Sequence record: PQ799574.1
Source: Escherichia phage vB_EcoM_Maryam
Length of the DNA stretch: 64,000 nt
Direction: 5' to 3' (one strand)
Shown here: positions 1,619 through 42,312 of the stretch, piece after piece
Numbering within the stretch: position 1 is the stretch's first letter
Layout: every line of letters begins with the position of its first letter
The notes under the pieces: model-generated
Database searches by the model: none
What the model saw: the letters and a program-made list of their open reading frames with translations, nothing else
Told to the model about the DNA's origin: nothing
Position numbers and translations under genes: made by a program

Positions 1619-2092
1619 ATGTTATTGACTGGCAAATTATATAAAGAAGAAAAACAGAAATTTTATGATGCACAAAATGGTAAATGCTTAATTTGCCAAC
1701 GAGAACTAAATCCTGACGTTCAAGCTAATCACCTCGACCATGACCATGAATTAAATGGACCAAAAGCAGGAAAGGTGCGTGGATTGCTTTGTAATCTCTG
1801 CAATGCCGCAGAAGGTCAAATGAAGCATAAATTTAATCGTTCTGGCTTAAAGGGACAAGGTGTTGATTATCTTGAATGGTTAGAAAATTTACTTACTTAT
1901 TTAAAATCCGATTACACCCAAAATAATATTCACCCTAACTTCGTTGGAGATAAATCAAAGGAATTTTCTCGTTTAGGAAAAGAGGAAATGATGGCTGAGA
2001 TGCTTCAAAGAGGATTTGAATATAATGAATCTGACACTAAAACACAATTAATAGCTTCATTTAAGAAGCAGCTTAGAAAGAGTTTAAAATGA
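1619..2092 (+). CDS. 49: endonuclease VII (Holliday junction resolvase)
   Basis: 157 aa, MLLTGKLYKEEKQKFYDAQNGKCLICQ... matches recalled T4 gp49; zinc-binding Cys cluster. Confidence 0.95.
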   Translation: MLLTGKLYKEEKQKFYDAQNGKCLICQRELNPDVQANHLDHDHELNGPKAGKVRGLLCNLCNAAEGQMKHKFNRSGLKGQGVDYLEWLENLLTYLKSDYTQNNIHPNFVGDKSKEFSRLGKEEMMAEMLQRGFEYNESDTKTQLIASFKKQLRKSLK

Positions 2093-3906
2093 CAATTGAA
2101 AAAGAAATTGAAGGATTGATTCATAAAACTAATAAAGACCTTTTAAACGAGAATGCTAATAAAGATTCTCGTGTTTTTCCAACTCAACGGGACCTTATGG
2201 CTGGTATTGTGTCTAAACACATTGCCAAAAATATGGTCCCGTCTTTTATTATGAAAGCGCATGAAAGCGGAATTATTCATTTCCATGATATTGATTATTC
2301 CCCTGCTCTTCCATTTACTAATTGTTGTTTAGTAGATTTAAAAGGAATGCTTGAAAACGGATTTAAGCTAGGTAATGCGCAGATTGAAACTCCTAAATCA
2401 ATTGGCGTTGCTACTGCAATTATGGCACAAATTACTGCGCAAGTTGCTTCCCATCAATATGGCGGAACGACTTTTGCGAATGTAGATAAAGTACTTTCTC
2501 CTTATGTTAAACGCACCTATGCAAAACATATTGAGGATGCAGAAAAATGGCAAATCGCTGATGCGTTGAATTATGCCCAGTCTAAAACAGAAAAAGACGT
2601 ATACGATGCATTCCAAGCTTATGAATATGAAGTAAATACTCTTTTTAGTTCAAACGGACAAACTCCTTTTGTAACAATTACATTTGGTACGGGAACTGAC
2701 TGGACTGAACGAATGATTCAGAAAGCAATTCTGAAAAATCGTATTAAAGGTCTCGGTCGTGATGGGATAACTCCTATTTTCCCTAAGCTTGTTATGTTCG
2801 TCGAAGAAGGTGTTAATCTTTATAAAGACGATCCGAACTATGATATTAAACAGCTTGCTCTAGAGTGCGCAAGCAAAAGAATGTATCCTGACATCATTTC
2901 GGCTAAGAACAATAAAGCTATTACTGGTTCATCTGTTCCTGTTTCTCCAATGGGTTGCCGTAGTTTCTTGAGCGTATGGAAAGATTCGACTGGTAATGAA
3001 ATTCTTGATGGACGTAATAATCTTGGTGTTGTAACACTGAATCTTCCTCGTATCGCATTAGATTCTTATATTGGAACACAGTTCAATGAACAGAAATTTA
3101 TCGAATTGTTCAATGAGCGAATGGATTTGTGTTTTGAAGCTTTGATGTGTAGAATTAGTTCCTTAAAAGGAGTTAAAGCAACTGTTGCTCCTATTCTTTA
3201 CCAAGAAGGTGCATTCGGGGTTCGTCTTAAACCTGATGACGACATAATTGAGTTATTTAAAAACGGTAGAAGTTCAGTGTCTTTAGGATACATTGGTATT
3301 CACGAATTGAATATTCTTGTCGGTCGTGATATTGGACAAGAAATTTTAACTAAAATGAATGCTCATCTTAAACAGTGGACTGAAAGAACCGGATTTGCTT
3401 TTAGTTTATATTCGACTCCTGCTGAAAACCTTTGTTATCGCTTCTGTAAACTCGATACAGAAAAATATGGAAGCGTAAAAGATGTTACAGATAAAGGCTG
3501 GTACACTAACAGTTTCCATGTTTCAGTAGAAGAAAATATTACTCCGTTTGAAAAGATTTCTCGTGAAGCGCCATATCATTTCATTGCGACAGGTGGTCAC
3601 ATTTCTTATGTTGAACTTCCTGATATGAAAAATAACTTAAAGGGTCTTGAGGCCGTATGGGATTATGCTGCACAACATTTAGATTATTTTGGTGTTAACA
3701 TGCCGGTAGATAAATGTTTTACGTGTGGAAGTACCCATGAAATGACTCCTACTGAAAACGGATTTGTTTGTTCTATCTGTGGAGAAACTGATCCTAAAAA
3801 GATGAACACAATAAGAAGAACATGTGGTTATTTGGGAAATCCGAACGAACGCGGATTTAATCTCGGTAAAAATAAAGAAATCATGCATAGGGTTAAACAC
3901 CAATGA
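2089..3906 (+). CDS. nrdD: anaerobic ribonucleotide reductase large subunit NrdD (intron-less)
   Basis: 605 aa continuous ORF; glycyl-radical C-terminal region (RRTCGYLG) and Cys cluster; ATGA overlap with gene 49. Confidence 0.95.
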   Translation: MTIEKEIEGLIHKTNKDLLNENANKDSRVFPTQRDLMAGIVSKHIAKNMVPSFIMKAHESGIIHFHDIDYSPALPFTNCCLVDLKGMLENGFKLGNAQIETPKSIGVATAIMAQITAQVASHQYGGTTFANVDKVLSPYVKRTYAKHIEDAEKWQIADALNYAQSKTEKDVYDAFQAYEYEVNTLFSSNGQTPFVTITFGTGTDWTERMIQKAILKNRIKGLGRDGITPIFPKLVMFVEEGVNLYKDDPNYDIKQLALECASKRMYPDIISAKNNKAITGSSVPVSPMGCRSFLSVWKDSTGNEILDGRNNLGVVTLNLPRIALDSYIGTQFNEQKFIELFNERMDLCFEALMCRISSLKGVKATVAPILYQEGAFGVRLKPDDDIIELFKNGRSSVSLGYIGIHELNILVGRDIGQEILTKMNAHLKQWTERTGFAFSLYSTPAENLCYRFCKLDTEKYGSVKDVTDKGWYTNSFHVSVEENITPFEKISREAPYHFIATGGHISYVELPDMKNNLKGLEAVWDYAAQHLDYFGVNMPVDKCFTCGSTHEMTPTENGFVCSICGETDPKKMNTIRRTCGYLGNPNERGFNLGKNKEIMHRVKHQ

Positions 3907-4373
3907 ATTACGATAGATTTTATCCATGTGATTTTGTGAATGGCCCTGGATGCAGGGTCGTTCTTTTCGTTACAGGTTGTTTGCATAAATGCGAAGGGTG
4001 TTATAATAAATCAACATGGAATGCTAGAAATGGTATTCCATTCACTGGTGAAACACTAGAACAATTGATTGAATGTTTGAATAATGATTATATAGAAGGA
4101 TTGACTATAACCGGAGGTGACCCTCTCTATCCTGATAATCGAGATGTTATTCATTGCATTGTTCAAACAGTAAAAAATCTTTATCCCAATAAAAGCATTT
4201 GGTTGTGGACAGGATATAAATTTGAAGATATTAAACAACTAGAAATGCTTAAATATGTTGATGTTATTATTGATGGGAAGTATGAGAAAAATCTTCCGAC
4301 TAAAAAGCTATGGCGAGGATCAGATAATCAGCGGCTTTGGTCAAATACCGATGGGGTGTGGAAACATGATTAA
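3903..4373 (+). CDS. nrdG: anaerobic RNR activating protein NrdG (radical SAM)
   Basis: 156 aa; CxxxCxxC motif (CLHKCEGC); ATGA overlap with nrdD. Confidence 0.9.
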   Translation: MNYDRFYPCDFVNGPGCRVVLFVTGCLHKCEGCYNKSTWNARNGIPFTGETLEQLIECLNNDYIEGLTITGGDPLYPDNRDVIHCIVQTVKNLYPNKSIWLWTGYKFEDIKQLEMLKYVDVIIDGKYEKNLPTKKLWRGSDNQRLWSNTDGVWKHD

Positions 4374-4479
4374 ATTGAATTATATTATGGATACTATAAA
4401 TGATATGATTTTTCATTTTGGTCCAGAATTTTATTCGCAATATAGTTTAGTGCTTATCAATGCTTGGTTAATCAATTAA
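4366..4479 (+). CDS. small hypothetical ORF (37 aa)
   Basis: ATG at 4366 overlapping nrdG stop; ORF track gives longer out-of-frame overlap 4255..4479. Confidence 0.3.
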   Translation: MIKLNYIMDTINDMIFHFGPEFYSQYSLVLINAWLIN

Positions 4480-4488
4480 GGGTAAAAT

Positions 4489-4704
4489 ATGTATAAATTT
4501 CGTAAAGGTTTAGCTGATTTTCTTACAACTGTAACATTCTTTCTGTTTATGGCAGTTGGAGCTATTTTTCTTATTCCTTTTATTGTTGTATTTTTCGTTA
4601 TTAGTTTAATTTCTCCAGAAAAGGGCTTATCTTCTAGTGAGTTCAATGAGCGTCTGGATAAAATTACTAACAAGCTGAATGCTGTTCTTGATAAAAAGGC
4701 TTAA
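4489..4704 (+). CDS. small membrane protein
   Basis: 71 aa with long hydrophobic stretch FFLFMAVGAIFLIPFIVVFFVISLI. Confidence 0.5.
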   Translation: MYKFRKGLADFLTTVTFFLFMAVGAIFLIPFIVVFFVISLISPEKGLSSSEFNERLDKITNKLNAVLDKKA

Positions 4705-4706
4705 TT

Positions 4707-5018
4707 ATGATTAGTTTTGAGCGGTATGTAGTAGAGAGTTGGAATGGTTTTGATATGTTCGGTAATGACTATTATTTCTATGAATGTAGTCTGAACCCAA
4801 GCTTCTGGGCTGGACGTGAACAAGACCTCGAAGAAATCAACGCTCGTGCCGATTTGTTAGGTGAACTGCCTACTACTTATTTCACCTTTGATGAATCCGG
4901 CTTCGTTATCCAGGTTTATTTCCCTGAAGAAAATTCTGGTGATGATTCTGTTAATCCTCCTTATTGGGCTTACCAAGGAATTATTTCTCGTGGAACAAAA
5001 CTCGAACTTAAAGAATAA
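4707..5018 (+). CDS. hypothetical protein
   Basis: ORF track 103 aa. Confidence 0.5.
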   Translation: MISFERYVVESWNGFDMFGNDYYFYECSLNPSFWAGREQDLEEINARADLLGELPTTYFTFDESGFVIQVYFPEENSGDDSVNPPYWAYQGIISRGTKLELKE

Positions 5019-5313
5019 GATTGAAGTCTATGGAATTCCAGATGAAGTAGGTCGTTGTCCTGGATGTCAATCAGTTACAAAACTTCTAAAGGAGCTCAAT
5101 GCTCCTTTTACTTTCTATAAAGTTCTTACAAATAACGGTAAGATTGAGTATGATCGTCCACTGATTGTATCTCTTGCTAAACGCGCTGGATTCACATCTC
5201 TTAACATTCGTTATCCAGTCATTTTCATTAATGATTCTAGACAAAAGAACATTAAACACTTCAAAGAAACTCTCATTTCACTTGGATATGATAGAGATAT
5301 CATAGAAGATTAA
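4988..5313 (+). CDS. glutaredoxin/thioredoxin-like protein (NrdH-like, CPGC motif); start codon uncertain
   Basis: Frame of ORF 4861..5313 contains KIEVYGIPDEVGRCPGCQ; no ATG after upstream stop, GTG at 4988 or other non-AUG start possible. Confidence 0.45.
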
Positions 5314-5316
5314 GAC

Positions 5317-5338
5317 GGGCCCTTTGGGCCTTTCTTTC
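5317..5338 (+). terminator. GC hairpin (GGCCC ttt GGGCC) plus T-rich tail
   Basis: Inverted repeat read from sequence, directly after ORF ending 5313. Confidence 0.5.
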
Positions 5339-5411
5339 TCACATTCTGTATATTACCATTCTAAGCTATCGTTCCCTTCTTATCATTCCCTAAAATAATT
5401 TTCACAAAGTT

Positions 5412-5441
5412 GTTTACAACGAGCTCAAACTGTGGTATTAT
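5412..5441 (+). promoter_or_regulatory. T4-type early promoter (GTTTAC ... TATTAT)
   Basis: -35-like GTTTAC 5412-5417 and -10-like TATTAT 5436-5441, upstream of ORF at 5472. Confidence 0.45.
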
Positions 5442-5471
5442 TAACACATGAATTGCCTTTGAGGAATTGAT

Positions 5472-5648
5472 ATGGTTGATAAAGAGATTAAAATTGACCA
5501 GTATTATCGTGTTAACGGACATATCGTTATTGTTACAGCAGTCGATGATCTAGATGTTCATTATACTGTGATTAAATGGAACAAACGTATGATTTGTGAT
5601 CGTGCTGTATTTAGTTCAGTTGCTAAGGAAATTAAACTCCATGGGTAA
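5472..5648 (+). CDS. small hypothetical protein (58 aa)
   Basis: ATG 5472 preceded by GAGGA; not in ORF track (<60 aa). Confidence 0.4.
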   Translation: MVDKEIKIDQYYRVNGHIVIVTAVDDLDVHYTVIKWNKRMICDRAVFSSVAKEIKLHG

Positions 5649-5934
5649 AACGTATCGTCGTAAAGACTTAAAAGTGCGTGATTATGACTATTTCGGAAAG
5701 CGTAAAGCTCCTGATGGGGTAAGTCATAAAGATATGGTTGAAAACATTTTTCGCTCAGATAAATGGCGTAGAATGAAAGGCATTGATTCAGAAGTTAAAG
5801 ATGAGCTAAATCGCCAATTACGCGGTGAAGTAAGAAAGTTGAAAAAATCAGTTTACATTGATGATGATTTTGATTATAATACTTCTCAACGAGTTGCTAA
5901 ACGTAAATCAAACGAGTGTTATCGTTACAGCTGA
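5641..5934 (+). CDS. hypothetical basic protein
   Basis: ORF track 5596..5934; start moved to ATG 5641 which overlaps upstream stop. Confidence 0.5.
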   Translation: MGKTYRRKDLKVRDYDYFGKRKAPDGVSHKDMVENIFRSDKWRRMKGIDSEVKDELNRQLRGEVRKLKKSVYIDDDFDYNTSQRVAKRKSNECYRYS

Positions 5935-41138: not shown

Positions 41139-42312
41139 TAAATTCTTCCATATCACTTAACTGCTCGAGGTCAGTTTCTAAATCAGCAGCTGATTTACTT
41201 TTACTTTCTGAAGATTTAAATTTTTCAACTTTTGAGTTAATCAATTCATCAACTTCAGCTTCAACAATTTCATTACTATCAATAGCACCTAACTGATAAG
41301 CACGTTTAATAGCATCTCGGAATGGTTGATGCTTAAATAAAGGACCCCAGAATGTAGTGCAGTTGGTATCTTTTGCACGCCAAGATTTTTCTTCGCGAAT
41401 CATCTCGCCGGTTTCTTCGTCAAGAAATTCACGCGCATACCAACCATTTTTAGGTTTTACTACAAATCCTAATTCTAGAGCCATATCTAACAATCCAGAA
41501 TAAGGATCAATACCACCGTCAAATTTAACATCAATAAAGAATTTACTTTTTTCTTTAACGGTACGAGATTTTTCTACATTTAGAACAAATTGATACCCCT
41601 GAAGATCAGAACCATCTTTAATCTGACGCTTACCGATAATGAATACTGTATCAGCCGAATACATTACGCCTGTACCACCTGTCATCACGGTTTTACTAAA
41701 CATTTCAATTGTTTCAATTGTATGGTTAACCGCAACACATGGAATATTTTTAATGCTAAAGTAAGGAGTAACGATACGGAATAATGACTTCAGTGATTTA
41801 GCACGAGTCATATCTGCCACAGATTTTTCATTTAAGGCATCTTCCGTTTCTTTCTTAGAAGCCATATTACCGATTGAGTCGATGAATACAATAACCTTTT
41901 CACCACGCTCAATAGCTTCAAGCTGATTCACCATATCAATTTTCAGCTGTTCAACTGACTGAATCGGCGTATGAATTACTCGTTCCGGGTCAACTCCCAT
42001 GGATCGCAAATAAGCTGGAGTAATACCAAATTCACTATCATAGAATAGACAAACCGCGTCAGGATATTTGTTCAAATATGCCGCAACCATAGTCAAAGAC
42101 ATATTTGATTTAAAGTGTTTAGAAGGCCCTGCGAAAATAGTTAAACCAGACTGCATACCGCCATCAATCGCACCAGAAATAGCGATATTAAGCATTGGGA
42201 TTTTTGTGCGGATTACATCCTTTTCATTAAAGAATTTAGATGTAGTCAGTTCAGCAGTCATTTTAGAAGTGGAAGCTTTAATCAAACGGGATTTTAAATC
42301 TGCAATAGACAT
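41131..42312 (-). CDS. uvsX: UvsX recombinase (RecA-like)
   Basis: 393 aa; RecA-fold motifs; recalled T4 UvsX. Confidence 0.95.
   Translation of the reverse strand: MSIADLKSRLIKASTSKMTAELTTSKFFNEKDVIRTKIPMLNIAISGAIDGGMQSGLTIFAGPSKHFKSNMSLTMVAAYLNKYPDAVCLFYDSEFGITPAYLRSMGVDPERVIHTPIQSVEQLKIDMVNQLEAIERGEKVIVFIDSIGNMASKKETEDALNEKSVADMTRAKSLKSLFRIVTPYFSIKNIPCVAVNHTIETIEMFSKTVMTGGTGVMYSADTVFIIGKRQIKDGSDLQGYQFVLNVEKSRTVKEKSKFFIDVKFDGGIDPYSGLLDMALELGFVVKPKNGWYAREFLDEETGEMIREEKSWRAKDTNCTTFWGPLFKHQPFRDAIKRAYQLGAIDSNEIVEAEVDELINSKVEKFKSSESKSKSAADLETDLEQLSDMEEFNE

Follow-up and report, generated by a model that had tools for sequence, protein, structure and literature searches.

The locus analysed here lies in a stretch of 64,000 nucleotides of Escherichia phage vB_EcoM_Maryam (PQ799574.1), hereafter called the window. 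On the given strand the gene order is nrdD (2089-3906), nrdG (3903-4373), a small ORF, 55.8, an ORF at 4707-5018 (ORF 4707), nrdH, a hairpin, a promoter-like site and 55.6 (Table 1). The order nrdD-nrdG-55.8-(ORF)-nrdH-55.6 is kept in comparison with RB51 and T4 and holds in six other genera, and the sequence of the hairpin also follows nrdH in T4. The nrdD gene is an uninterrupted ORF of 605 aa and nrdG follows it with an ATGA overlap (2089-4373). In contrast to T4, nrdD of the window has no I-TevII-bearing group I intron, and nrdD and nrdG are not separated by mobC. Downstream of the terminator-like hairpin, a strong sigma-70-like promoter (TTTACA, 17 nt, TG-TATTAT; 5413-5441) was noted 5' of 55.6. 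Searched with the DNA between 4650 and 5400, 638 phage records gave a match, and in 419 of these at least 80% of the query length was covered. Identity is 100% with Escherichia phage BCU-2 and 98.9% with RB51, hence the window belongs to a Tequatrovirus.

Table 1. Positions of the features at the nrdH locus, numbered from the first letter of the window.
Feature	Position	Strand	Remarks
Gene 55.8	4489..4704	+	71 aa, PHROG 1930; directly precedes nrdH in T4
ORF 4707	4707..5018	+	103 aa, PHROG 2749 (E 3.9e-49), RB51ncORF079c, unknown function; TAA 5016-5018
Putative Shine-Dalgarno AAGGA	4975..4979	+	10 nt 5' of GTG; within 3' end of ORF 4707-5018
nrdH CDS	4990..5313	+	107 aa + TAA (5311-5313); T4-type glutaredoxin
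nrdH start codon GTG	4990..4992	+	annotated start in RB51, BCU-2, Ac3
Dual-coding overlap, ORF 4707 end / nrdH start	4990..5018	+	29 nt
CPGC active-site codons TGT CCT GGA TGT	5056..5067	+	read from sequence
Terminator-like hairpin GGGCCC-TTT-GGGCC + T-rich tract	5317..5341 (hairpin 5317-5331)	+	4 nt after nrdH stop

The frame at 4980-5313 is an intact, ordinary nrdH that encodes the T4-type CPGC glutaredoxin of a Tequatrovirus, a protein of 107 aa that is very probably initiated by the GTG at 4990-4992. In the ORF listing, frame 1 is open from 4861 to the TAA at 5311-5313. From 5017 on it encodes KIEVYGIPDEVGRCPGCQSV..., and the product read from the GTG begins MEQNSNLKNKIEVYG.... The original prediction, which had singled out the frame with KIEVYGIPDEVGRCPGCQSV, was right that this frame is real and misplaced its GTG, which lies at 4990-4992 and not at 4988. 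In comparison with T4 NrdH (NP_049686.1), 99 of the 100 aligned residues match, and a core of 98 aa is 100% identical to the proteins of T2, T4T and others. The product is matched by PHROG 22, 'thioredoxin domain' (E 5e-16), and by Pfam PF00462 Glutaredoxin with 23.8 bits at a gathering cut-off of 22.9. With T4 NrdC, the 'T4 thioredoxin' (PDB 1AAZ, 1ABA, 1DE1, 1DE2), the window NrdH has the fold family in common: the structures 1ABA and 1AAZ align distantly (E 5e-4), beta-strand 1 (KVYG) and the CxxC motif correspond, and CPGC is aligned with the CVYC/CGPC site of NrdC (1AAZ/1ABA). NrdC is, however, only distantly paralogous; it has 87 aa and a CVYC site, and its sequence in the structure entries starts immediately before beta-strand 1. 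The bacterial NrdH-redoxin model (GlrX_NrdH) gave no match to the product in an NCBIfam scan at E up to 1, in which the sole return was GlrX_YruB (16.1 bits against a cut-off of 88.55). The neighbours are the class III genes nrdD and nrdG and small phage ORFs, rather than an nrdHIEF operon. The window NrdH thus stands outside the bacterial NrdH-redoxin family, and because that model is unmatched, the phage gene name 'nrdH' is best taken as historical. The T4 protein has reportedly been expressed, in work by Gvakharia et al. (1996, J Biol Chem 271:15307; cited in PMC8022965), and is said to have glutathione-dependent disulfide reductase activity.

Near the conserved N-terminus, GTG 4990 is the only canonical start codon. 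It had been claimed that no ATG occurs in the frame from the upstream stop to the conserved N-terminus; two in-frame ATGs are in fact present, at 4891 and 4942, although neither is close to the N-terminus. We calculated the duplex energy between the 16S 3' end and the 20 nt 5' of every in-frame candidate (ATG, GTG, TTG, CTG and ATH between 4861 and 5032; n=16). The best pairing among the 16 candidates was that of GTG 4990 (-5.4 kcal/mol), which ranks in roughly the upper 7% of the window positions sampled; the 10 nt between its Shine-Dalgarno sequence and the GTG are near the upper limit of what is usual. A folded RNA structure at the start is not indicated, as the fold of 4955-5045 was no better than shuffles (z 0.29), and an Rfam scan of 4300-5700 returned no family and only a chance-level snoRNA match (E 0.73). 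The initiator tRNA decodes GUG, a start codon that is common, though in the minority, in E. coli and its phages. In T4, 2 of 19 annotated CDS in a 9-kb stretch begin with GTG, namely nrdH and the short form of gene 49. The latter, GTG-initiated like nrdH and encoded in the same region, shows that T4 accepts GTG starts; it is, however, an internal restart in an ATG-initiated gene, whereas the GTG of nrdH is the only start of its gene. In the window, the 30S subunit would bind AAGGA at 4975-4979 and the initiator tRNA would decode GUG 4990 as fMet, which would be standard bacterial non-AUG initiation. Full-text searches turned up no paper that deals with the start codon of nrdH or with initiation-site profiling in T4. 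From the strong comparative evidence we infer that GTG 4990 is used in vivo.

Codon differences were counted in a gap-free alignment of nine Tequatro- and Mosigvirus sequences. Over the 129 nt 5' of the GTG, the ORF 4707 frame has 255 synonymous and 54 non-synonymous differences and the nrdH frame 18 and 306, so that the latter is indistinguishable there from the third frame (18 and 296). On the 3' side of the overlap, the frame of ORF 4707 is not conserved (32 synonymous, 911 non-synonymous), and the nrdH frame has 635 synonymous and 250 non-synonymous differences. Since substitutions 5' of the GTG are synonymous in the frame of ORF 4707 and non-synonymous in that of nrdH, coding-type selection in the nrdH frame sets in at the GTG. 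The frame is hence untranslated 5' of 4990, which rules out the ATGs at 4891 and 4942. The conservation of codons 1 to 9 should not be credited to nrdH alone, because they are overlapped by the C-terminus of ORF 4707.

These counts bear directly on the idea that one of the upstream ATGs initiates. The frame is open from 4861 and includes both, and start at 4942 or 4891 would give a protein of 123 or 140 aa with a hydrophobic N-terminal extension (MILLILLIGLTKELFL...) that is superficially signal peptide-like. Yet the stretch in question evolves as non-coding in the nrdH frame, ATG 4942 is AGG in RB51 and Ac3, and both ATGs are without Shine-Dalgarno pairing (-2.8 kcal/mol for 4942, +2.6 kcal/mol for 4891). 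Moreover, in-frame stops in T4, T2 and Gaprivervirus forbid an upstream extension. In T4 an in-frame TAA is found four codons 5' of the nrdH GTG, as likewise in T2 and three IMG/VR contigs; therefore GTG is the only canonical start available in T4 and an upstream start is impossible there. In the Gaprivervirus phage RZ and three IMG/VR genomes, an in-frame TGA is located three codons 5' of the homologous GTG. We regard initiation at either upstream ATG as highly improbable.

Initiation at GTG 4990 is consistent with the arrangement in related phages. We read the in-frame codons 5' of beta-strand 1 in 14 additional phages representing T4-like genera and in 48 IMG/VR loci, the latter retrieved with a degenerate DNA pattern for I-E-[VI]-Y-G-I-P-[DE] and comprising 28 distinct start regions; a scan of IMG/VR for close relatives covered 9 loci only. 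The homologous GTG is kept in five genera, with AAGGAA, AAGGAG or AAGGTGG 9-10 nt upstream. Read from the GTG, the N-terminus is VEQNSNLKNKIEV in Tequatrovirus (VKQNKIEV in T4 and T2), VEQNSNLKNKIEI in Mosigvirus, VGQNSTKIEI in Gaprivervirus, VDQKLTKIEI in Dhakavirus and VENQSLKIEV in Kanagawavirus. The Shine-Dalgarno counterparts are AAGGAA in T4, AAGGAG in Gapriver- and Dhakavirus, AAGGTGG in Kanagawavirus and GAGG in Karamvirus PG7. In PG7 the homologous codon is an ATG (ATG-GAA-AAC compared to GTG-GAA-AAC in Kanagawavirus). Between this GTG or ATG and the Ile of beta-strand 1 there are 15, 21, 27 or 30 nt, four lengths that all keep the frame. In Jiaoda-, Marfa-, Gelderland-, Slopek-, Lazarus-, Pseudoteven- and Krischvirus and in Aeromonas phages, an ATG stands 1-4 codons before that Ile. 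In the remote genera the protein starts M-K-I-E-I-Y-G; in the T4 clade the place of this Met is taken by Asn, Thr or Leu, and the GTG used lies 4-9 codons upstream. The T4 clade thus swapped a proximal ATG for an upstream GTG long ago, and a lost start codon, as had been suggested for the window, is apparent only in this distant evolutionary sense.

The proximal ATG of the remote genera, together with the fold of T4 NrdC that begins at residue 3, could be taken to favour a start at the near-cognate ATT 5020-5022. This codon lies 1 nt after the TAA of ORF 4707 (TAAGATT), a geometry usable by termination-reinitiation, and initiation or re-initiation here would yield M-E-V-Y-G, resembling the M-F-K-V-Y-G of NrdC and the remote homologues. 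AUU is a far weaker initiator than GUG in E. coli. The ATT has no Shine-Dalgarno pairing (-0.9 kcal/mol) and its conservation is simply that of a codon for the Ile of beta-strand 1. Furthermore, no ORF ends at the equivalent ATT in T4 and T2, and the upstream stop of Mosigvirus comes 6 nt later, beyond the ATT. A start at this codon would also leave unexplained why an in-frame GTG or ATG with a Shine-Dalgarno sequence persists through four length variants. It is very unlikely that nrdH is initiated in this way, and GTG 4990 is retained as the start.

The GTG start of nrdH is already known, as the reference annotations of T4 and RB51 carry it. T4 nrdH (formerly ORF 55.7) shares with the window gene the GTG start, AAGGAA, CPGC, the terminator hairpin and the neighbours 55.8 and 55.6. 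The T4 product has 102 aa (M-K-Q-N-K-I-E...) compared to 107 aa in the window (M-E-Q-N-S-N-L-K-N-K-I-E...), and its GTG follows 2 nt after the 55.8 stop, while the GTG of the window lies 29 nt inside ORF 4707. In RB51, nrdH (YP_002854031.1) and RB51ncORF079c have an architecture, GTG start and 29-nt overlap identical to those of the window and are already annotated as such; RB51 differs by a few substitutions and has, for example, no ATG at the position of 4942. The annotations of BCU-2 and Ac3 likewise place nrdH at exactly the equivalent of GTG 4990, with the 29-nt overlap. Aligned with T4 nrdH and its homologues, as the original prediction had proposed as a check, the start falls on the GTG equivalent to that of T4. 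Of the explanations offered there, non-AUG initiation is the one borne out, by the T4 annotation and by the conservation of GTG in five genera. The overlap with the preceding ORF is confirmed as well and covers 4990-5018. Homologues start at the equivalent GTG and the overlap is natural; therefore the nrdH start is no anomaly.

That the window genome carries a damaged nrdH, whether through loss of its start, an indel or a sequencing error, and does not express it as such, is barely credible. Within the window this idea draws on the missing nearby ATG alone, and among relatives on Pectobacterium phage PM2, whose frame is shifted by 1 nt at an A7 run in this region. The window junction, by contrast, has no homopolymer. 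NrdH is under purifying selection and nearly identical to its T4 homologue over the aligned residues, and hundreds of phages, each sequenced independently, have the same arrangement. On this evidence nrdH is intact and the suggestion of a lost start codon fails; given the number of matching phage records, a private indel or read error is excluded.

In its own frame ORF 4707 is under purifying selection (528 synonymous and 159 non-synonymous codon differences), it is annotated in RB51 and others and conserved across at least five Tevenvirinae genera; its product has no Pfam match. The succession of 55.8, an ORF of about 100 aa running into the nrdH start, and nrdH is found in Tequatro-, Mosig-, Gapriver-, Dhaka- and Kanagawavirus, so the overlap is natural and recurs across genera. 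Within the 29 nt only one site varies among the nine Tequatro- and Mosigvirus sequences, a T/C at 5016. The change is synonymous in nrdH and converts the TAA of ORF 4707 to CAA, by which the Mosigvirus stop moves 6 nt downstream. T4 and T2 have no PHROG 2749 ORF, and in the alignment 55.8 is joined directly to ...AAGGAATAGTT-GTG; the ORF has been lost by deletion in these two phages. AAGGAA and GTG are kept there, which would be expected if they are functional start signals.

The predicted ribosome binding site of nrdH and its putative first nine codons are embedded in the 3' end of ORF 4707, and for this reason nrdH is probably translationally coupled to ORF 4707 in the window. It is a reasonable reading that T4 nrdH is coupled to 55.8 in a similar manner, given the succession of stop, 2 nt and GTG. 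A further-reaching view would see the embedding of ribosome binding site and GTG as a coupling device that ties NrdH synthesis to that of the PHROG 2749 protein, with the two perhaps working together, and would read the PM2 fusion as a naturally occurring 'Rosetta stone', or as an A7 site prone to slippage, and not as a sequencing error. We consider this view unlikely. In PM2 (NC_028940, 41901-42500), the PHROG 2749 ORF and nrdH are annotated as one 'glutaredoxin' of 199 aa. The conserved AAGGAATTATTTCTAGTG is present and is followed by the A7 run (about 42,214-42,220), which throws the GTG out of frame; with one added A, GTG-VEKKYPKIEIYG... is back in frame and the upstream ORF is separate again, ending with TAA. 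In a tblastn search with the fused PM2 protein, both parts were adjacent in 543 of 1259 records, and the listed records covering both halves match in two pieces and two frames. The sole one-piece match among the 1259 records was PM2 itself, and a natural fusion of ORF 4707 and nrdH was rejected. The PM2 fusion is likely a homopolymer error or a private frameshift.

The GTG start carries little biological weight and its practical value lies in annotation quality. ATG-only gene calling gets nrdH wrong, as seen in the PM2 fusion and in two further records. In JS10 (NC_012741, fetched stretch 734-1000), the nrdH annotation begins at an internal ATG that precedes CPGC by two codons, so that beta-strand 1 is lost. 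In Kanagawavirus the frame is also open from an ATG six codons 5' of the conserved GTG, and the annotators of Q7622 (fetched stretch 665-1006) chose this codon. Both starts are mis-annotated. Such records can be corrected by looking for a GTG that follows AAGGAR by 9-10 nt and stands 4-9 codons ahead of K-I-E-[VI]-Y-G. A different irregularity was seen in the record of phage JQD51 (PV204681), in which product names look displaced: 'glutaredoxin' stands on the 55.6 homologue, 'anaerobic ribonucleotide reductase' on the 55.8 homologue and 'hypothetical protein' on nrdH, and the PHROG 2749 ORF is unannotated. Finally, a perfect 8-bp hairpin inside nrdH (AAAGGAGC-TCAAT-GCTCCTTT, 5088-5108) was flagged as terminator-like by a scan. 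Within it, AAGGAG precedes an ATG at 5099 that is out of frame and, judged by eye, starts an ORF of just some 21 codons; the hairpin is probably incidental.
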